Source: Mytilus edulis
Lineage: Eukaryota
Direction: 5' to 3'
Assembly: GCF_963676685.1 (NCBI RefSeq)
Contig: NC_092344.1
Location: forward strand, 49,662,001 to 49,726,000
Length of the DNA: 64,000 bases
The position numbers were made by a program, and so were the translations under genes. Each line of letters opens with the position of its first letter. The stretch's first letter is position 1. Below are positions 3,907-63,125 of this stretch, piece by piece. A model generated the notes under the pieces. It was not told where the DNA came from and ran no database searches. It saw nothing but the letters and a program-made list of their open reading frames with translations.

Positions 3907-4942
3907 ATGATGACATTCCAGACCATTTTCGTTTTGATGGCAATGGTCACAATAACAGCAGCCGGTAAGAAAAATGTTCAATGTGTTTTAGTCGAAATTT
4001 ATAAACTGTATCAAATAAAAGTGTTTTAATTGTATAGATAACATTTAAAAAATAACACAGAAAGTTCTGATATTTCCGAAACCGAACAGTCTCTGCAATT
4101 GCTTACAACAACGTTCTTTTGCTAAAAGTGTGTAATTGTTTTATTAGCGATAATACTTGATATTATTGTATTGTTAAATAAAAATAATCCCTAGTATTTT
4201 TTCCAATTAATCAATTCATGAAAATCACATAAAGTGTCAGATCTTTAATTTTACAGTATATGTACCCTCGGATAAGCATGCATTAGATAGACATGGAATG
4301 GAGAAGGTTTTACTGGTCGAAAACACAGTTGGAAGAAACATAAACAGGCGTCGTGGTGATGGATCTCTTTCTGTACTGGATGTTATTGATGCAAATAGAC
4401 GAGCAGGATCAAGAGGAGTTGGGACATCTCATGGAATAGGCAGTGAATTTATTACACACGGGTCATCTTCCGGTAGAGGATTGTCCGGGGCTTTTGTTGG
4501 TGGCAGGACCTCTGTATCTGGAAGTATTAGAGGCTCTTCAGTTGGTTTGTCCCGTGCTTTATCTGACGATGATGATCATTTCACCTCTGGCATCCGAATT
4601 GGTGCATCTGGTCTAGTTAGAAATGTGGATCTGTCTAGAAATTCTCATTTGGAAACTATTGGTAATATCCGTGGAGTGTCTGGTCATTCAGGTGCAGATA
4701 TTATTGACGCAATCAGTTCTAGACGAGGTGGGCGTGTTGTCCTGGACACTGTTTCTGCCAGACGAAGTGGATCAGCCCGTACTTCTGGTTCAAGACTAGT
4801 TTCTCAGTCAGTGGTAGGAGGAAAAACTGATTGCAAAAACGACTGTTTTAGTGATGGAGATTGTCCAACAAACAGATACTGTGCCACTGTTAATTGTCAC
4901 AGAATTTGTAGAAGAAGACTGTCTAATGGATACTCACCATGA
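3907..4942 (+). CDS. Secreted Gly/Ser/Arg-rich protein with C-terminal six-Cys WAP-like domain, copy 1 (short type, 247 aa)
   Basis: Coding exons 3907-3964 (MMTFQTIFVLMAMVTITAA signal peptide, phase-1 donor GTAAGA) and 4257-4942 (acceptor TTTTACAG), in frame with ORF 4298-4942. AATAAA at 4988-4993. Confidence 0.9.
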
Positions 4943-10693: not shown

Positions 10694-12004
10694 TCATGAT
10701 GAGTATCCATTTGACAGTCTTCTTCTACAAATTCTGTGACAATTGACAGTGGCACAGTATCTGTTTGTTGGACAATCTCCATCACTAAAACAGTCGCTTT
10801 TGCAATCAGTTTTTCCTCCTACCACTGACTGAGAAACGAATCCTGAACCTGAAGTACGACCTGATCCACTACGTCTGGTCGAAACGGTGTCTAAAACAAC
10901 ACGCCCACCTCGTCCAGAGCTGATTGCGTCAAGAATATCTGTACCTGTATGACCAGACACTCCACGGCTACTACCAATAGTTTCCAAATGAGAATTTCTG
11001 GACAGATCCACATTTCTAGCCAGACCAGATGAACCAATTCGGCTACCAGACGTGAAATGATCATCATCGCCAGATAAAGCACGGGACAAACCAATTGAAG
11101 AACCTCTTATGATTCCAGATACAGAGGTCTTGCCTCCAACAGAAGCCCCAGACAATCCTCTACCGGAAGATGACCCGTGTGTTATAAATTCACTGCCTAT
11201 TCCACGAGCTGTGCCAACATTTCTTGATCCTGCTCGTCTATTTGCATCAATGATATCCAGTACAGAAAGAGATCCCTCACCACGACGCCTGTTTATGTTT
11301 CTTTCAACTGTGTTTTCAACCAGCAAAACCTTTTTAACTCCATGTCTGTCTAATGCATGTTTGTCTGTGGGTGCGTAGACTGTAAAATAAATATTTGACG
11401 TGTTATATTTCACAAATCTAGTAATACAGAACAATAAAAATTAACTCTTGTTTATATGTAAATATAAGGTTTCTGGCATTTTAACCAATGATATAACTAT
11501 CAACTAAAGATGAAATGACTAGAATGTTATCAATAGTTATCAAAGGTACCAGGATTGTAATTTAGTACGCCAGATGCGCGTTTCGTCTACACAAGACTCA
11601 TCAGTGACGCTCATATCAAAATATTGATAAAATCAAACAAGTACAAAGTTCAAGAGCATCAACTTAAGGGAACGTACGGCTTCAGCACAGATGTAGGTTC
11701 ATACCGTATAGTAAGCTATAAAAGACCTCATATGACAAATGTGAACCAATTCAAAAAGAGAAAACCTTTTGTGAAATGTTCTTGTAAAATATTCAAAAAT
11801 ATGTAGATCTTGTTAAGTATTGAAATTATATCTTTTTAAGGATTTTTTTTATTGTAATCATTTAGATATTTGTATCTTCACACCCGAACCACTTCTGTTA
11901 AAATAGTCTACAAACTCACAGGAAGCGATTAGAATATTTTACATACCGGCTAGTGTTACTGTTGTCAATGCAATCAAAAAGAAAATGGCCTGGAATCGCA
12001 TCAT
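10694..12004 (-). CDS. Secreted Gly/Ser/Arg-rich WAP-like protein, copy 2 (short type, 247 aa)
   Basis: Coding exons 12004-11947 (MMRFQAIFFLIALTTVTLA, donor GTATGT) and 11379-10694. Non-coding exon 1 donor at 12415. TATAAAAG at 12477-12484 on the minus strand. Confidence 0.9.
11567..11610 (-). ncRNA. Minimal type I hammerhead ribozyme motif in a retrozyme/Penelope-like repeat (~11532-11660), sense within intron 2 of copy 2
   Basis: Minus strand reads GCGTCA CTGATGA GTCT TGTGT AGAC GAAA CGCGCA TC TGGCGT. Core intact; stem III has a C.A mismatch. Confidence 0.7.
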
Positions 12005-17747: not shown

Positions 17748-18786
17748 ATGATGACATTCCAGACCATTTTCGTTTTGATGGCAATGGTCACAGTAACAGC
17801 AGCCGGTAAGAGAAATGTTCAATGTGTTTTAGTCGAAATTTATAAACTGTATCAAATAAAAGTGTTTTAATTGTACAGATAACATTTAAAAAAATAACAC
17901 AGAATGTTCTGATATTTCCGAAACCGAACAGTCTCTGCAATTGCTTACAACAACGTTCTTTTGCTAAAAGTGTGTAGTTGTTTTATTAACGATAATACTG
18001 GATATTATTGTATTGTTAAATAAAAATAATCCCTAGTATTTTTTTTCCAATTAATAAATTCATGAAAATCACATAAAGTGTCAGATGTTTAATTTTACAG
18101 TATATGTACCCTCGGATAAGCATGCATTAGATATACATGGAGTGGAGAAGGTTTTACTGGTCGAAAACACAGTTGGAAGAAACATAAACAGGCGTCGTGG
18201 TGAGGGATCTCTTTCTGTACTGGATGTCATTGATGCAAATAGACGAGCAGGATCAAGAGGAGTTGGAACATCTCATGGAATAGGCAGTGAATTTATTTCA
18301 CACGGGTCATCTTCCGGTAGAGGATTGTCTGGGTCTTCTGTTGGAGACAGGAACTCTGTATCTGGAATCATTAGAGGCTCTTCAACTGGTTTGTCTCGTG
18401 GTTTATCTGACGACGATGATCATTTCACCTCTGGCAGCCGAATTGGTTCATCTGGTCTAGTTAGAAATGTTGATCTGTCTAGAAATTCTCATTTGGAAAC
18501 TATTGGTAGTGGCCGTGGAGTGTCTGGTCATTCAGGTGCAGATATTCTTGACGCAATCAGTTCTGGACGAGGTGGGCGTGTTGTACTAGACACTGTTTCG
18601 TCCAGACGTAGTGGATCAGGTCGTACTTCTGGTTCAAGACTAGTTTCTCAGTCAGTGGTAGGAGGAAAAACTAATTGCAAAAACGACTGTTTTAGTGATG
18701 GAGATTGTCCAACAAACAGATACTGTGCCACTGTTAATTGTCACAGAATTTGTAGAAGAAGACTGTCAAATGGATACTCACCATGA
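17748..18786 (+). CDS. Secreted Gly/Ser/Arg-rich WAP-like protein, copy 3 (short type, 247 aa)
   Basis: Coding exons 17748-17805 (MMTFQTIFVLMAMVTVTAA) and 18101-18786; canonical GT-AG and an intact ORF. Confidence 0.9.
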
Positions 18787-22897: not shown

Positions 22898-24002
22898 TCA
22901 TCCTGTGTATCCTTTAGACGGTCTCCTTCTACAAATCATGTGACAATTAACAGTGGCACAGTATTTGCTCGTTGGACAATCGCCGTCACTAAAACAGTCT
23001 TTTTTGCAATCAGTTTTTCCTCCTAGTACTGACTGAAAAACGACTCCTGAACCAGAAGTACGACCTGATCCACTGCGTCTGGAATCAACATTATCTAGTC
23101 CAACTCGTCCGGAGCTGATTGCATCAAGAATATCAGAACCTGAATGACCAGACACTCCACGGCCACTATCTATGGTTTCCAAACGAGAACTGCGAGAGAG
23201 ATCAAAATTTCTAGCCAGACCAGATGTACCAATTCTGCTACCAGATGATATATGACCATCATTACTTGAAACACTGGTCAATCCAGATGATGAACTTCTA
23301 GAAGAAATGTCGACACAGTAACTGCTACAGCCATCATGTACACATTTATGTCCTGAACGACATAACTTGTCATCTCCACACCCATAATGACAATTACTGA
23401 TACTGTCATCGTCAGATAAAGCACGAGAGAAACCAGCTTGAGAGCCTCTTGATACAGAGACCCTTCCTCCAACAGAACCACCAGACAATCCTATACTAGC
23501 TGAAGAACCATGTGATAAAAATTCATTGCCTATTCCATGAGATGTTCCACCTGCTCTTGACCCTGTTCGTCTATTTGCATCAATGACGTCCAATACAGAA
23601 AGAGATCCACCACCACGACGGCCGTTTATGTTTCTTCCAACTATGTTTTCGACAAGCAAAACCTTTTCCACTCCATGTCTATCTAATGCATGTTTTTCCG
23701 TTGGTGCATAGACTGTAATATAAATATCTGACATTTTATATAACTTTCACAAATCAAGTAATACAAAAACTATGAAAATTAAAAATATGTTGATGTAAGT
23801 AAATCACCTTCTTCAGGACTGAAATTATACCTTTTTGATGATTTGTTATAGTAAGGCATTTATATTTTTGTATATTAACACCCTAAACACTTCTGTTAAA
23901 ACAGTTTGTAAACTTGCAGAAAGCAAATTGAATAGTTTACTTACCGGCGACTGTTATTGTGGACAATGCCATCAAAAAGAAAAAGGTCTGGAATATCATC
24001 AT
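22898..24002 (-). CDS. Secreted Gly/Ser/Arg-rich protein with two six-Cys WAP-like domains, copy 4 (long type, 290 aa)
   Basis: Coding exons 24002-23945 (MMIFQTFFFLMALSTITVA) and 23712-22898. Internal domain CHYGCGDDKLCRSGHKCVHDGCSSYC plus the terminal domain. TATA at ~24420-24427. Confidence 0.9.
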
Positions 24003-30123: not shown

Positions 30124-31173
30124 ATGATGAGATTCCAGACCATTTTCGTTTTGATAGCATTGACAACAATAACAGTAGCCGGTAAGAAAAATGTTCAATG
30201 TGTTTTTCTCGAAATTTATAAACTGTAAAAAATAAAAGTGTTTTCAGTGTGTAGATAACATTTGAATATCCTACCACTGAATGTTCATTAAAACAGCTGA
30301 CATTTCCAAAACCGAACAGTCTCTGCAATTGCTAACAACAACGTCCCTTTGCCTAGAGTGTGTAATTGTTTTTATTAACGATAATACCTCATATTATTGT
30401 ATTGTTAAATAAAAGATAATTCACCAGTATTTTTTTTCTCCAATTAATCAATTCATGAATTTCACATCACTTGTCAGATATTCAATTTTACAGTATATGC
30501 ACCCTCGGATAAGCATGCATTAGATAGACATGGAGTGGAGAAGGTTTTACTGGTCGAAAACACAGTTGGTAGAAACATAAACAGGCGTCGTGGTGAGGGA
30601 TCTCTTTCTGTACTGGATGTTATTGATGCAAATAGACGAGTAGGGTCAAGAGGAGTTGGAACATCTCATGGAATAGGCAGTGAATTTTTTACTCACGGGT
30701 CATCTTCCGGTAGAGGATTGTCTGGGTCTTCTGTTGGAGGCAGGAACTCTGTAATCATTAGAGGCTCTTCAACTGGTTTGTCTCGTGGTTTATCTGACGA
30801 TGATGATCATTTCACCTCTGGCAGCCGAATTGGTTCATCTGGTCTAGTTAGAAATGTGGATCTGTCTAGAAATTCTCATTTGGAAACTATTGGTAGTGGC
30901 CGTGGAGTGTCTGGTCATTCAGGTGCAGATATTATTGACGCAATCAGTTCTAGACGAGGTGGGCGTGTTGTCCTGGACACTGTGTCTGCCAGACGAAGTG
31001 GATCAGCCCGTACTTCTGGTTCAGGATTTGTTTCTCAATCTGTGGTAGGAGGAAAAACTAATTGCAAAAGTGACTGTTTTAGTGATGGAGATTGTCCAAA
31101 AAACAGATACTGTGCCACTGTTAATTGTCACAGGATTTGTAGAAGAAGACTGTCTAATGGATACTCACCATGA
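30124..31173 (+). CDS. Secreted Gly/Ser/Arg-rich WAP-like protein, copy 5 (short type, 245 aa)
   Basis: Coding exons 30124-30181 (MMRFQTIFVLIALTTITVA) and 30494-31173. TATAAAAG at ~29425 and exon-1 donor at ~29488. Confidence 0.9.
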
Positions 31174-40580: not shown

Positions 40581-41638
40581 TCATGGTGTGTATCCTTTAG
40601 ACAGTCTTCTTCTACAAATACTGTGACAATTAACAGTGGCACAGTATCTGTTTGTTGGACAATCCGCATCACTAAAACAATCGTTTTTACAATCAGTTTT
40701 TCCTCCTACCACTGACTGAGAAACGAGCCCTAAACCTGAAGTACGTGCTGATCCACTACGACTGGAAGAAACAGTGTCTAGTATCCCACGCCCACCTCGT
40801 CCAGAACTGATTACGTCATTAATATCTGCACCTGTATGACCAGACACTCCACGACCACTACTAATAGTTTCCAAATGAGAATTTCTGGACAGATCCACAT
40901 TTCTAGCCAGACCAGATGAACCAATTCGGCTGCCAGAGGTGAAATGATCATCATCGTCAGATAAAGCACGGGACAAACCAATTGAAGAACCTCTAATGAT
41001 TCCAGATACAGAGGACCTGCCTCCAACAGAAGCCCCAGACAATCCTCTACCGGAAGATGACCCGTGTGTAATAAATTCACTGCCGCCTATTCCATGAGAT
41101 GTTCTAACTCCTCTTGATCCTGCTCGTCTATTTGCATCAATAACATCCAGTACAGAAAAAGATCCTTCACCACGACGCCTGTTTATGTTCCTTCCAACTG
41201 TGTTTTCGACCAGTAAAACCTTCTCCACTCCATGTCTATCTAATGCATGCTTCTCCGAGGGTGCATATACTGTAAATATTGAATATCTGACAATTAACTT
41301 GATTTTCATGAATTGATTAATTGGGAATAAAAATACTGGTGAATTATTTTTTATTTTACAATACAATGATATCAGGTATTATCGACAATAAAACAACTAC
41401 ACACTATAAGCAAAGGAATGCTGTTGTAAGCTATTGCAGAGACTGTTCGATTTCGAATATATCAGCTGTTTTAAAGAACATTCTGTGGTAGGACATTCAA
41501 ATGTTATCTACACACTGAAAACACCTTTATTTGATACAGTTTATAAATTTCGGGAAAAACACATTGCACATTTTTCTTACCGGCTACTGTTATTGTGGTC
41601 AATGCCATCACCACGAAAATGGTCTGGAATTTCATCAT
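40581..41638 (-). CDS. Secreted Gly/Ser/Arg-rich WAP-like protein, copy 6 (short type, 248 aa)
   Basis: Coding exons 41638-41581 (MMKFQTIFVVMALTTITVA) and 41269-40581. TATA at ~42303-42310. Confidence 0.9.
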
Positions 41639-47808: not shown

Positions 47809-50029
47809 GCGTTTAGATAATTAATTTAAGATTAAAGTTAAAAAGAAATGCATCGTTTGAACTAACAAAACGACAAACGACAAACTGTAGACGTATTTGC
47901 AGCAAGTATATAGTTTGTCAAATTTTATTCAAACTTTGCAAAAGTATGTTCGAAACAAATGATCAAACCGTGTGCACGCTGAACTGCTTGTATAGTTAGT
48001 GTAAGAAAGAAATTCACTCCAAATAAAAATAAAATATTTGCCTTTCGTCTCCTTTTTGTGTGAAATTACGTCAAAATGTTCGATTGAAAAACAATTGACA
48101 GTAAGGTGACCTATAGTTGTTGTTAATAATTTCTGTGTCATTTGGTGTTGTGCAAAGAGATGTCTCGTTGGTAATTGTACCACATCTTCTTTTTTTATAC
48201 TACAAACATTTCTATACAAACGGAATATACGGACAGACAAAACAGAAAATAGCCCATAAAACAGGTGAAATATAATCTTGATGTTCTGCCGAAACACATG
48301 AGTGCATCCCAGGTTATGTTGGGTTATGTGTTGCTAAGTTTTTAGTTTTCTACGTTGCCTCTCTTTTAAAATGATACCTCTCCTTGCAAAAGTAAAGACT
48401 TTTTTGATTGAGTTAAGCCTGCCAATTGATATTTTATCGTATGTTTTTCTATGTTGTGATGTTATGCTATTGTTTCAGAAAAAGGGAGAAGGTTTGGTAC
48501 CATTAAAACGTTTAATCCCGCTGCTAAAGTTGCACCTGCATGTACTAAGTCAGGAATCTGATGTACAGTAGTTGTCGTTTGTTTATGTAATTTATACGTG
48601 TTTCTCGTTTCTCGTTTTTTTTTATATAGATTAGACCGGTTTTTTTCCGTTTGAATGATTTTACACTAGTAGTTTTGGTGCCCTTTATAGCTTGTTGTTA
48701 GATGTGAGCCAAGGCTTCGTGTTGAAGGCCGTACATTGACCTATAATTGTTTATTTTTATATAAATTGTTATTTGAATTGAGATTTGTCTCATTGCTACT
48801 CACACCACATCTTCCTGTATCTATTATAAATAAAACGAAAAAATGTTGCACGACGAACGTACCACTATCGTACGACAGACAATCAATGTCGTGCGAGCGT
48901 CGTACGAAATTTGGTATTCGAGAGACAATAGTGCGACTGTATCACGAGTGTCTTGCGACAGTCATGAGATTGTCGTACGACAATCATGCAACAGTCGTAC
49001 GATTTTTTTGTTTCCAAATGGTTTATGTTGGTATCCACGACAATGTGTTTATCACAAGACAGTCGCACGACTGTGATAAGACACTCTCAAGACATCCCCA
49101 AGACAGTGAAACGACAAAAAATAGTTGAGCAAAAAAGGTGCATGTCCAATTTTCGTCCAAAGACGAACGATAGCGCAACGATGCTTAAAATATCGTGCAA
49201 CTGTCGTACGACGATCACAGATGACCATCGATTTGATGAAATTTCATGCCGTGGCGCTTCATAAATATGTCGTGGGTTCGTTGTGACCAGGGCTAAAATA
49301 AGACAAATATCCATCACACACGTAACAATGTTCAATTTTACAACTATAGGTCACAGAATTACCTTCAGCAATGATTGAAACCCATACCACATAGTAATGT
49401 AAGCTAAAAATAGTTCATATATCGTTTTATATTAAGGACCGACCATATGGATGTATGCATATAAAAATTAACAAATAAACATATTATTCCCCTAGGTGAA
49501 CAGATATAGCAATTAGAATATATTCTCATACTTTTTATGTTATTATTCAGATTTCATGTATACCTCTTTTAATAATCTATTTTAGATTTCTATGCAAATA
49601 TCTTTCGCTTAATCTGTTTTTGTAAAGGAAAATCGTTAGTTTTCCTTTTTGTCTATTTATCAGCACGTGGCCAGCATAAAAAATGAAGAATTTTTGTAGT
49701 TATTTCAGTGTGAATTGTCTTTGTTTTGCCGAAAAAAAACTTTTTTTATCGTTTATGTTATGCTTTTTGTGAGTTACGGGTTACTGTAACTTAAACAAAC
49801 CACCAATCATATTTCCAATTGCTGTATGATTGTATTATCTTTATTTATATCCGTTTTTATGTTTGCATGTTGTTATATTTTTTCTGATCAGTTTTGTTTG
49901 ACGAATGACTTATCAATATTTTTGAAGAAATAACGGAAAATCTATACAATAAGAAAATCTTAGTGCAATATTTTATTTTAAAAAAGATATCAAAAAGTGT
50001 TCATAGTCTGGATTTCGCTGAAAGGCTTT

Positions 50030-51085
50030 TCATGGTGTGTATCCTTTAGACAGTCTTCTTCTACAAATACTGTGACAATTAACAGTGGCACAGTATCTGT
50101 TTGTTGGACAATCCGCATCACTAAAACAATCGTTTTTGCAATCAGTTTTTCCTCCTACCACTGACTGAGAAACGAGCCCTAAACCTGAATTACGAGCTGA
50201 TCCACGACGTCTGGAAGAAACTGTGTCTAGTACAACACGCCCACCTCGTCCAGAACTGATTGCGTCAAGAATATCTGCACCTGTATGACCAGACATTCCA
50301 CGGCCACTACCAATAGTTTCCAAATGAGAATTTCTGGACAGATCCACATTTCTAGCCAGACCAGATGAACCAATTCGGCTGCCAGAGGTGAAATTATCAT
50401 CATCGTCAGATAAAGCACGGGACAAACCAATTGAAGAACCTCTAATGATTCCAGATACAGAGGACCTGCCTCCAACAGAAGACAATCCTCTACCGGAAGA
50501 TGACCCGTGTGTAATAAATTCACTGCCGCCTATTCCATGAGATGTTCTAACTCCTCTTGATCCTGCTCATCTATTTGCATCAATAACATCCAGTACAGAA
50601 AGAGATTCCTCACCACGACGTCTGTTTATGTTCCTTCCAACTGTGTTTTCGACCAGTAAAACCTTCTCCACTCCATGTCTATCTAATGCATGCTTATCCG
50701 AGGGTGCATATACTGTAAATATTGAATATCTGACAATTAACTTGATTTTCATGAATTGATTAATTTGGAATAAAAATACTAGTGAATTATTTTTTATTTT
50801 ACAATAAAATGATATCAGGCATTATCGACAATAAAACAACTACACACTATAAGCAAAGGAACGATGTTGTTAGCTATTGCAGAGACTGTTCGATTTCGAA
50901 TATATCAGCTGTTTTAAAGAACATTCTGTGGTAGGACATTCAAATGTTATCTACACACTGAAAACACTTTTATTTGATACAGTTTATAAATTTAATTCGG
51001 GAAAAACACATTGAACATTTTTCTTACCGGCTACTGTTATTGTGGTCAATGCGATCAACACGAAAATGGTCTGGAATCTCATCAT
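50030..51085 (-). pseudogene. Family copy 7 (short type) with one premature stop
   Basis: Exons 51085-51028 and 50712-50030 have intact splice sites. CGA>TGA at 50567-50569; otherwise in frame (one 6-nt deletion relative to copy 6). Confidence 0.85.
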
Positions 51086-56657: not shown

Positions 56658-58610
56658 ATGATGAGATTCCAGACCTTTTTCTTTTTGATGGCATTGACCA
56701 CCATGACAGTAGCCGGTAAGTAATTAGTTATCAAAAGTACCAGGATTATAATTTTATACGCCAGACGCGCGTTTCGTCTACATAAGACTCATCAGTGACG
56801 CTCAGATCAAAATAGTTAAAAAGCCAAACAAATACAAAGTTAAAGAGCATTGAGGACCCAAAATTCCAAAAAGTTGTGCCAAACACGGCTAAGGTAATCT
56901 ACTCCTGGGGTAAGAAAATCCTTAGTTTTTCGAATAATTCAAAGTTTTGTAAACAGAAAATTTATAAAAATGACCATGTAATTGATATTCATGTCAACAC
57001 CGAAGTGTTGACTACTGGGCTGGTGATACCCTCGGGGACGAAACGTCCACCAGCAGTGGCAACTATTCAATTTGCTTTCTTCAAGTTTAACAGAAGTGTT
57101 TTGGGTTTTATTATACAAAAATCTAAATGCCTTACTATCAAAAAATTTAAAAAATATAATTTCAATACTTATTATTTTATCATTTGTATATTCTTGAAAA
57201 AAATTTAACACAAAGTTTTCTGTTTTGAATTGAATCAGATTTGTCATGTGGAGTCTTTCAATACGGTATGGCCTGGATCCGTACGTTCACTGCAGTTGTT
57301 AACGTCCTATGCATTTCATCTATAGCAAATAGCTATCTAATTGGCAAACATATAAGATATCCTTACATTTATAAGAGAGACGAAAGATACCAGAGGGAGA
57401 GTCAAACTCATAGGTTGAAAATAAACTGACAACGCCATGGCTAAAAATAAACAGACAAATAATAGTAAAGAAGACACAAAATAGAAAACTAAAGACTAAG
57501 CAACGCGAACCCAACCAATAACTAGTGGTGATCTCGGGTGCTCCGAAAGGGTAAGCAGATCCTGCTTCATATATGGCACCTGTCGTGTTGCTTAAGTCAT
57601 TATAAATTCGGTAACTAGTCTAATTCGGTATGTCACATTCGTGAAAAGGGAAAGGTATTGTAGTTACGACATAAGGAACATATCCGATATCATCTGTGAA
57701 ACTTACATATACACAAGAGCGAACTTTTATTGTTTTTATATTACTAGAATTCTGAAAGTTATATAAAATGTCAGATCTTCATTTTACAGTTTATGCACCA
57801 ACTGAAAAACATGCATTAGATAAACATGGAGTTGAAAAGGTTTTACTGGTCGAGAACTCAGTTGGAAGAAACATCAACAGGCGTCGTGGTGGCGAATCTC
57901 TTTCTTTACTGGATGTCATTGATGCAAGTAGACGAACAGGATCAAGAGCTGGAGCTGTTGGTACATCTCATGGAATAGGAAATGAATTTCTAACACACGG
58001 GTCATCAACCAGTATAGGATTGTCTGGTGGTTCTCTTGGAAGTAGGACCTCTGTATCAAGAGACTCTTTAGCTGGTTTGTCTCGTGCTTTATCTGACGAT
58101 GACAGTATCAGTAATTGTCATTATGGGTGTGGAGATGACAAGTTGTGTCGTTCAGGACATAAATGTGTACATGATGGTTGTAGCAGTTACTGCGTTGACA
58201 TTTCTTCTAGAAGTTCATCATCTGGATTGACCAGAGTTTCAAGTAATGATGGTCATATATCATCTGGCAGCAGAATTGGTACATCTGGTCTGGCTAGAAA
58301 TTTTGATCTCTCTCGCAGTTCTCGTTTGGAATCTATTGGTAGTGGCCGTGGAGTGTCTGGCCATTCAGGTTCTGATATTCTTGACGCAATCAGCTCTAGA
58401 CGAGTTGGACTAGACACAGTTTCTGTCAGACGTAGTGGATTAGGTCGTATTTCTGGTTCGGGACTCGTTTCGCAGTCTGTGGTAGGAGGAAAAACAGATT
58501 GCAAAAATGACTGTTTTAGTGATGGAGATTGTCCAACGAGCAAATACTGTGCATCTGTGAATTGTCACATGATTTGTAGAAGAAGACCGTCTAATGGATA
58601 CACAGGATAA
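56658..58610 (+). CDS. Secreted Gly/Ser/Arg-rich protein with two six-Cys WAP-like domains, copy 8 (long type, 292 aa)
   Basis: Coding exons 56658-56715 (MMRFQTFFFLMALTTMTVA) and 57790-58610. Intron 2 is enlarged by repeat insertions. TATAAAAG at ~56226. Confidence 0.9.
56723..57060 (-). mobile_element. ~340-bp hammerhead-containing repeat (retrozyme/Penelope-like) inserted 7 bp after the exon-2 donor of copy 8
   Basis: Absent in paralog copy 4, where GTAAGTA|AACTATTC is contiguous. Same family at ~7838, 11532, 32238, 60575 and 60800. Confidence 0.75.
56758..56801 (-). ncRNA. Intact minimal type I hammerhead ribozyme
   Basis: Minus strand reads GCGTCA CTGATGA GTCT TATGT AGAC GAAA C GCGC G TC TGGCGT: full core, 4-bp stem II, palindromic GCGC loop III, GUC cleavage triplet, and stem I CGTCA/TGGCG. 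Confidence 0.85.
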
Positions 58611-61791: not shown

Positions 61792-63125
61792 ATGATGATA
61801 CGCCAGTCATTTTTCTTTTCGTTGGCATTGGTCACAGTGACACTAGCCGGTAAGAGAAATATTCGATGATTTCTCTAGATTTAAAAGCTATTTTTTATAA
61901 TGTGTTTTCGTTGTTGAGATAAAAAAAAAAACACCTTTTCAAAATCTTAACAAACGGTATAATGTCATTTCATACGAAGGTATCTTACCAACAACTTCAT
62001 ATTTTGGTAGAAGGAAAAATTTGAAAGAATGGTTTGCTGGTTCATATATTTTTTTGCAATGTTGAATCCTTTATAGCTTGCAAAACGGTATGAGTTTTAT
62101 ACAGTGCTAAATCCATACGGTCCCTGTTATATAATAGATAATTGTCTTATTTGCAAATATACCATAACTCATTAAATCAGTTTATAGATTAAGGATAATG
62201 TATATTTGAGAAGATAAAATGTCAGATATATTTTTTTACAGTCTATGCACCCACAGAAAAACATGCATTTGGAGTGGAGAAGGTTTTACTGGTCGAAAGC
62301 AAAGTTGAAAGAAACATAAACAGGCGTCGTGGTGGTGGATCCGTTTCTGTACTTGATGTTATTGATGCACAGACGAGCAGGATCAAGAGGAGTTTGGAAC
62401 ATCTCATGGAATAGACAGTGAATTTATTACACACGGGTCATCTTCCGGTAGAGGACTGTCTGGGGTTACTGTTGGAGGCAGGACCTCTATATCAGGAACT
62501 ATTAGAGGCCTTTCAGCTGTTTTGTCTCGTGCTTTATCTGACGATGACAGTAGCAGTAACTGTCATTATGGGTGTGGAGGCGACAGATTATGTAGTTCAG
62601 GACATAAATGTTGACCTGAGGGTGGTAGCAGTTACTGCGTCGACATTTCATCTGGAAATATAATTGGTGCATCTAGATTGGCAGACTCTATTAGAAGGGT
62701 AAACACGGGGTCAGAAATGATTAGAAGGTCATTATCTGGCTTGACCAGAGTTTAAAGTAATGATGGTCATTTATCATCTGGCAGCAGAATCGGTACATCT
62801 GACTTGGCTAGAAATGTTGATCTCTCTCGCAGTTCTTATTTGGAAACTATAGGCAGTGGCTGTGGAGTTTCTGGTCATTCAGGTTCTGATATTCTTGACG
62901 CAATCAGCTCTGGACCAGTTGAAATAGATACAGTTTCTTTCAGACGTAGTGGATCAGGTCGTACTTCTGGTTCAAGACTCGTTTCTCATTCAGTATTAGG
63001 AGGAAAAACTGATTGTAAAAAAAGACTGTTTTAGTGATGGAGATTGTCCAACGAATAAATACTGTGTTTTTGTTAATTGTCACATGATTTGCAGAAGAAG
63101 ACCGTCTAATGGATATACAGGATAA
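61792..63125 (+). pseudogene. Family copy 9 (divergent long type), frameshifted
   Basis: Signal exon 61792-61849 (MMIRQSFFFSLALVTVTLA) and exon 3 from 62242. Frameshifts at ~62368, ~62395 and in the A-run at ~63020. Both Cys domains remain recognisable. TATA 60042-60049, exon-1 donor 60110. Confidence 0.85.

Follow-up and report, generated by a model that had tools for sequence, protein, structure and literature searches.

A six-cysteine module, very probably descended from the WAP domain, in a tandem array of secreted Mytilus proteins

Gene structure and tandem array

The window analysed here is a stretch of 64,000 nucleotides of the Mytilus edulis genome, with a GC content of 32%, and it holds an array of nine related gene copies in mixed orientation. 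Seven of these are intact, five having one cysteine-rich module and two having two, while one copy has an early stop and one is frameshifted. The first copy, which carries the module under study, is made up of the following features.

3907..3964, + strand: coding exon 1, a predicted signal peptide of 19 aa (hydrophobic core mean 2.45) followed by a GT donor
3965..4256, + strand: intron of 292 nt, GT..AG
4257..4942, + strand: coding exon 2, with an N-terminal tyrosine motif, the linker, the terminal module, a basic tyrosine tail and the stop
4349..4399, + strand: part of the linker; the equivalent stretch of sister copies was sequenced from shell, copy 1 differing at one residue (Asp for Glu)
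4349-4402 and 4700-4765, window positions: example sites of the Arg-Arg linker motif
4832..4909, + strand: terminal six-cysteine module of 26 aa, with WAP cysteines C2, C3, C4, C5, C7 and C8 at spacing 3-5-5-4-3
4910..4939, + strand: conserved basic tail of 10 residues ending in Tyr-x-x, the tyrosine being present in 63 of 63 terminal tails

The product of copy 1 has 247 aa, and the part encoded by exon 2 has a pI of 10.1, with a linker of about 190 aa that is rich in serine (17%), glycine (16%) and arginine (12%). The intron is spliced out in the contigs of two of four runs (X3 and X4), the RNA nature of the runs being a guess; the raw RNA runs X21-X24 hold almost no exon reads, contigs of X4 and X18 cover the exons, and contig depth, being a poor measure, was left unused. 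In agreement with the preliminary description, the terminal module encoded at 4832-4909 (+ strand) is exactly the 26-residue segment quoted there, with the same spacing. An alanine follows its fourth cysteine, so that CA replaces the CC doublet of the WAP domain, and exon 2 is free of cysteine upstream of the module. The net charge of the module is 0, or +3 when the tail is counted. The linkers of the paralogs contain a short amphipathic motif with Arg-Arg at its end, which is found one to four times in 57 of 73 proteins.

The 3-5-5-4-3 spacing occurs ten times in the six-frame translation of the window (eight terminal and two internal modules), as against no occurrence in 100 shuffled windows. 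The other copies of the window are as follows.

10694..12004, - strand: copy 2, one module at 10727-10804; intact
17748..18786, + strand: copy 3, one module at 18676-18753; intact; 18193-18243 is an exact shell-peptide match
22898..24002, - strand: copy 4, modules at 23315-23392 (internal) and 22931-23008 (terminal); intact
30124..31173, + strand: copy 5, one module at 31063-31140; intact; 30586-30636 is an exact shell-peptide match
40581..41638, - strand: copy 6, one module at 40614-40691; intact
50030..51085, - strand: copy 7, one module at 50063-50140; a premature stop interrupts exon 2 near its start
56658..58610, + strand: copy 8, modules at 58116-58193 (internal) and 58500-58577 (terminal); intact
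61792..63125, + strand: copy 9, a pseudogene of the two-module type, interrupted by frameshifts and stops

The internal modules of the two long copies (58116-58193, + strand, and 23315-23392, - strand) keep the identical spacing, as had been claimed for them, and are devoid of the DxDC-P signature. Searching the genome of the same species with the terminal piece gives 19 matches, all on one contig and spanning about 210 kb. The second exon is open in 16 of the 19, and the three broken paralogs (window 50030-51085, - strand; window 61792-63125, + strand; L014:2093-2732, - strand) point to birth-and-death turnover of the array. Six-cysteine modules number 1, 2, 3 or 5 per paralog, and one-module copies are separated from two-module copies by a clean in-frame deletion of 147 bp between short direct repeats. 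The gene at the array end (L031, G000:C1:49.859-49.860 Mb) encodes a complete eight-cysteine WAP domain followed by five six-cysteine modules; its leader, one linker motif and its tail are common to the shorter paralogs of the array, and the same design is found in homologues from M. trossulus and M. californianus.

Around 200 kb from the array there are two further genes with Thr/Ser/Asn-rich linkers, in which one complete WAP is followed by 11 six-cysteine modules (L055, G000:C1:49458101-49460086) or by two (L040, G000:C1:49479136-49480344), and a frame at 49.296 Mb (L038) has a six-cysteine module by itself. Together with the array, these three form a wider WAP-derived cluster. The database model P0098 merges a neighbour gene with the array end gene, which is probably a prediction error. 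Between and beside the array genes (L013, L028, L025, L022, L026; labels by eye) lie C2H2 zinc-finger, B-box/TRIM-like and reverse-transcriptase-like frames as well as cysteine-rich exons. The window has segmental duplicates of 2-3 kb with 83-93% identity, several of them inverted, at 2.5-5.5, 16.5-19.1, 29-31.7, 40-42.8 and 49.1-52.2 kb. An interspersed repeat at 48000-48900 and 49340-49500, with head-to-tail joints of about 590 bases and kin pieces near 2.7-3.3 kb, is matched in part by thousands of RNA reads from three runs.

Cysteine pattern, descent and predicted fold

Both C1 and C6 are absent from 111 of 111 modules in 67 close homologues (C6 or an upstream cysteine in 0 of 111), counts that represent close relatives and not independent events; 65 of the 67 are named Mytilus records, many of them auto-labelled 'WAP domain-containing'. 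With five genes per class and few sites, dN/dS of the terminal module is 0.15 in the one-module class and 0.16 in the two-module class, and internal modules give 0.13-0.14 and linkers 0.34-0.50; the terminal module of the three-module class gives 0.6, also over few sites. Modules of the window type are under purifying selection, and the combined absence from all 111 modules and the low module ratios (0.13-0.16 in the one- and two-module classes, against 0.34-0.40 for linkers) support a joint absence of C1 and C6 that is kept by selection, as opposed to decay, in line with the preliminary description. In the C1/C6 table of the profile search described below, 135 rows have both cysteines, 104 have neither, 20 have C1 only and 4 have C6 only; the table is drawn from related proteins chosen by a six-cysteine profile, many of its 'C1 only' rows reflect cysteines of the previous module, and its p-value was for these reasons left unused. 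The N-terminus of the short copies was also considered as a decayed WAP, a candidate which found no support, its score being reached by 12, 2, 9 and 55 of 200 shuffles.

The Pfam WAP profile (PF00095, gathering cut-off 20.8 bits) gives the terminal module 21.2 bits on 40 aa, 20.6 bits on 46 aa and 16.3 bits on the whole exon, so that in the HMMER check proposed at the outset the shortest piece lies just above the cut-off and the longer ones lie below it. The internal module reaches 15.6 bits, and two modules together 21.6. Over 25 modules, WAP is found on 23 and the DPY module on five (E up to 10), the best E-values of the two being equal. As Pfam scores this minimal WAP form at or below its cut-off, the form is undercounted from mussels to mammals. 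An Atlas search with exon 2 of copy 1 gave no usable match. Within the array, the full set of eight cysteines, with C1 and the C5-C6 doublet, is found solely in the N-terminal domain encoded by the end gene, and thus the six-cysteine modules are not canonical WAP members. As to descent, the terminal module keeps the WAP C2-C8 spacing together with the C-x-x-D-x-D-C-P signature, while internal modules keep the spacing only, and all six cysteines align on omwaprin without gaps. In addition, a complete WAP shares one protein with six-cysteine modules in the end gene, whose homologue P0068 scores 30.3 bits against Pfam WAP and whose WAP is matched by omwaprin with an E of 1e-5, and likewise in the genes at C1:49.46 and 49.48 Mb. 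From these results we consider it very probable that the module is a WAP descendant.

The AlphaFold2 models of the terminal and internal modules have core pLDDT values of about 90, with strands at 23-28 and 31-36 in both. Using Foldseek, the first six rows for the terminal module are WAPs (omwaprin, elafin and SLPI), omwaprin superposing with a TM of 0.68 and an rmsd of 1.0, and the best E is 0.12, so that no match is significant alone. In VIA, the first 4 of 13 rows are SLPI, omwaprin, elafin and nawaprin (Z 4.4-3.0), knottins reach 2.6 at most, and the offsets are gap-free and place the module alanine on WAP C6, every Z being under 5. For the internal module, VIA gives omwaprin a Z of 2.6 versus 2.5 for a knottin, and the first Foldseek row is a starfish peptide. 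The fold of the terminal module is thus predicted to be WAP-like, with a central hairpin, at weak scores, and the modelling check that had been suggested agrees with WAP for the terminal module and gives a tie between WAP and knottin for the internal one. The earlier view of a mini-WAP is in this way retained as regards WAP origin, to which the end gene, Pfam and the fold matches of the terminal module point, whereas its connectivity is read from the strand register of models and by sequence it is DPY that tops the PDB matches.

Indeed, the sole PDB match of the terminal module is the DPY module of Dumpy (1OIG, E 0.35), which is also the best PDB match of both profiles (E 3e-4 and 3e-5), ahead of omwaprin, and since DPY outscores omwaprin by sequence, another pairing has to be considered. 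According to this alternative the module would be a bead of Dumpy-DPY or knottin type, with a third disulfide between the first and last cysteines, and its WAP likeness would come down to a common CxxDxDC motif. The module has the DPY spacing C-x5-C-x5-C-x4-C, the best Pfam E-values tie, a knottin draws level with omwaprin for the internal model, and module trees split the mussel six-cysteine modules from the mussel eight-cysteine WAPs. Next after 1OIG for the internal profile rank the P-superfamily conotoxins gm9a/tx9a, in matches covering five of the six cysteines at another spacing. However, both models turn at the fifth cysteine, whereas DPY pairing would need a turn two residues earlier, the six cysteines find their gap-free register on omwaprin, and complete WAPs share proteins with six-cysteine modules in mussels as well as in vertebrates. 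The DPY module alternates with EGF modules and has a 1-3/2-4 pairing; Pfam finds no EGF on exon 2 or on the end-gene homologue, and the flanks of the module are cysteine-free Ser/Gly/Arg linkers. The 24-aa 1OIG is not among the rows of the four fold searches, an absence that does not exclude DPY. When the register is compared with the disulfide pairings of WAP, DPY and knottins, our reading of the models is that the fourth cysteine would lie opposite the sixth, as in WAP, and not opposite the fifth, as in DPY and knottins. We therefore hold a bead of DPY or knottin type to be quite improbable, and the models suggest C2-C7, C3-C5 and C4-C8 as the likely pairing.

The predicted WAP-like fold does not by itself imply protease inhibition. 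The contact region of elafin-type inhibitors is placed around C2, with a methionine next to the scissile bond, in PMC9680087. Between C2 and C3 there are 8 residues in elafin and 3 in the module, in the complete WAP of the array, in omwaprin, in nawaprin and in anosmin, and the elafin-type contact site is absent from the module (C2-x3-C3, no Met). Because C2-x3-C3 is already present in the eight-cysteine WAP of the array, the site is absent with or without C1-C6. Judged on these residues, the module is likely not an elafin-type inhibitor. The preliminary description had anticipated such an outcome but had attributed it to the missing C1-C6 pair, and this part does not stand, as non-inhibition does not follow from C1-C6 loss alone.

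Shell peptides, end tyrosines and possible roles

A total of 46 proteins is listed for hypochlorite-cleaned, periostracum-free M. edulis shell, identified by matching to a mantle transcriptome (PMC5854119), and three of the 46, as given in the supplement of that study, match the array family. Entry 8 is an exact match to window copies 3 and 5, entry 9 is an exact match to L011 and L015, and entry 36 matches L031 with two peptides, one of which lies within a six-cysteine module; in the same source the three entries stand without a BLAST hit, and a WAP tag is given to entry 36 only. In copy 1 one residue of the entry 8 peptide is changed, so that this copy has no exact shell match. This evidence amounts to two peptides per protein in one study, and for two of the three proteins these are a single peptide and its form with a missed cleavage. 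In five supplement files of a second Mytilus shell proteome (PMC4517812), six family motifs gave no match. As a family, the array combines a signal peptide with mantle transcripts and with peptides from cleaned shell, as is expected of shell matrix proteins; shells also trap immune proteins. The majority of the shell peptides come from linkers, indicating that linker sequence is retained in the shell. All 63 proteins that have a terminal module carry a tyrosine at most three residues from the C-terminus, and 50 of 51 proteins have one just past the leader, as against 12 tyrosines among 13,796 linker residues.

On balance, we consider it probable that the module ends a secreted protein of a 19-gene Mytilus array with sisters in the shell, and that its predicted three-disulfide WAP core is a likely rigid bead of the shell matrix and not an elafin-type inhibitor. 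The mantle would secrete a basic chain (pI about 10) whose flexible Ser/Gly/Arg linkers carry 1 to 5 or more beads, each locked by disulfides. Beads and arginines may bind acidic matrix or mineral, and the end tyrosines may cross-link the chain into the organic framework. The end gene, with a complete WAP in front, likely represents the older design, and the shorter paralogs likely arose via loss of the complete WAP and deletion of internal beads.

The same WAP-derived fold could instead belong to defence molecules stored in the shell or in mantle mucus, from which Arg-Arg cleavage would free an omwaprin-like peptide, either antibacterial or blocking microbial proteases. Defence genes commonly expand as families, and several dibasic sites are available, including the RR-ending motif repeated in 57 of the 73 proteins. 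The closest solved structure is omwaprin, which is reported in PMC11126030 to be active against Gram-positive bacteria, and according to PMC9680087 WAPs without the Met site often become antimicrobial. Yet no conserved dibasic site directly precedes the module, the module itself is uncharged overall (+3 with the tail), and the shell peptides are mostly derived from linkers, which are thus retained in the shell. Moreover, the module is near-invariant across paralogs and species, with a dN/dS of about 0.15, whereas mussel antimicrobial families are hypervariable. A defence role is thus unlikely in our judgement.

The tyrosine content is also far under that of adhesive foot proteins, which counts against a further explanation, namely that the proteins are mainly a foot or byssus secretion or a periostracum component and the shell peptides a minor carry-over, even if DOPA chemistry would suit the end tyrosines. 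WAP-tagged genes are described as enriched in the foot and mantle rim of Mytilisepta virgata (PMC5549309), and two unannotated WAP genes of Perna viridis as highly foot-specific (PMC7971044), but the supplement rows of these two sources give no sequence tie between their genes and the array family. In addition, bleaching and removal of the periostracum preceded the shell analysis of PMC5854119, and transcripts of the family are present in the mantle transcriptome against which its spectra were searched. We consider a mainly foot or periostracum origin very unlikely, and retain the shell-matrix bead as the preferred reading.

The six-cysteine form in other animals and its known relatives

A profile search over 1.84 billion representatives gave 96 matches, 34 of which have modules without C1 and C6, and 16 of these 34 proteins also have complete WAPs. 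Among 20 that were examined are proteins of kiwi, quail, peafowl, myna, muntjac, pygmy sperm whale, dolphin, horse and alpaca, the vertebrate matches being 'WFDC3-like' or unnamed proteins, and further records that show the mussel design. The variant is thus neither peculiar to this gene nor confined to molluscs, the same form being present in birds, lizards, horses and whales. In two lizard proteins (P0175 and P0177) C6 is absent and an upstream cysteine is kept, making them possible intermediates of C1-C6 loss. Module trees from 32-residue pieces, which have too few columns and between the first and second of which two proteins were left out, give 4 changes with the trait column, a circular count, and 5 with it masked; a single clade for the six-cysteine modules gives p-AU 0.58 with the trait masked, and so is not rejected. 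Such trees would fit one origin of the six-cysteine form or several, and cannot tell which. A more far-reaching proposal, which appears to us rather unlikely, is that C1-C6 loss recurs separately in mussels, birds and mammals and makes 26-residue three-disulfide beads, which in mussels would have become tyrosine-ended shell tethers, cross-linked and unfoldable, that toughen the shell and vary in bead count (1, 2, 3, 5 or more) through precise deletions.

Our literature search, with subscription papers outside its scope, found no description of a WAP lacking C1 and C6 or of the array. The module is an overlooked variant of a known domain and no new fold or system, many of its members being already tagged WAP in databases. 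For three shell proteins listed without BLAST hits, the analysis supplies the genomic location, the complete sequences and an interpretation of their domains, and a three-disulfide peptide of 26 residues is easy to make, which opens its pairing, inhibition and mineral binding to direct tests.

Compared with the WAP domain (PF00095), and in particular with its omwaprin-nawaprin-anosmin subtype (C2-x3-C3), the mussel modules have in common the C2-C8 spacing, the DxDC-P signature in terminal modules, the predicted hairpin and a gap-free structural register; they differ in being without C1, the C1-C2 segment and C6, the internal ones also without DxDC-P, and in riding on long Ser/Gly/Arg linkers. 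Elafin and SLPI domain 2 have a similar predicted core fold (VIA Z 4.1 and 4.4), but elafin has its 8 residues with a Met between C2 and C3, as against 3 and no elafin-type contact site in the mussel module. The Dumpy DPY module (PF21164, 1OIG) shares the inner spacing C-x5-C-x5-C-x4-C and has the top PDB score by sequence; it has four cysteines, another pairing and turn position, and sits between EGF modules, whereas the mussel modules lie between low-complexity linkers. Lustrin A combines Cys-rich beads, a Gly/Ser region and a WAP. The WAP domains of perlwapin and lustrin A are cited in PMC5854119 as mollusc shell matrix components and proposed carbonate binders; these are complete, unlike the mussel modules, and homology to either protein was not found (Lustrin_cystein on 1 of 25 modules, E 0.036).

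Among mammalian proteins, Wdnm1-like/WFDC21 presumably has six cysteines with the spacing of the module; it is a single domain without linkers, unlike the mussel chains. It is characterised in PMC4184305 as a small secreted 'distant' WAP member which raised active MMP-2 and was not inhibitory. An Atlas search with the horse six-cysteine part returned WAP clusters only, with scores up to 0.85 and no Wdnm1-like name, and a search for short relatives of the same part found none. Finally, the vertebrate 'WFDC3-like' proteins have the same 3-5-5-4-3 modules without a CC doublet, often beside complete WAPs; in mammals and birds the upstream cysteine is absent, as in mussels, while lizard modules retain one. 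Unlike the mussel family, these vertebrate proteins are compact, with neither Ser/Gly linkers nor end tyrosines.
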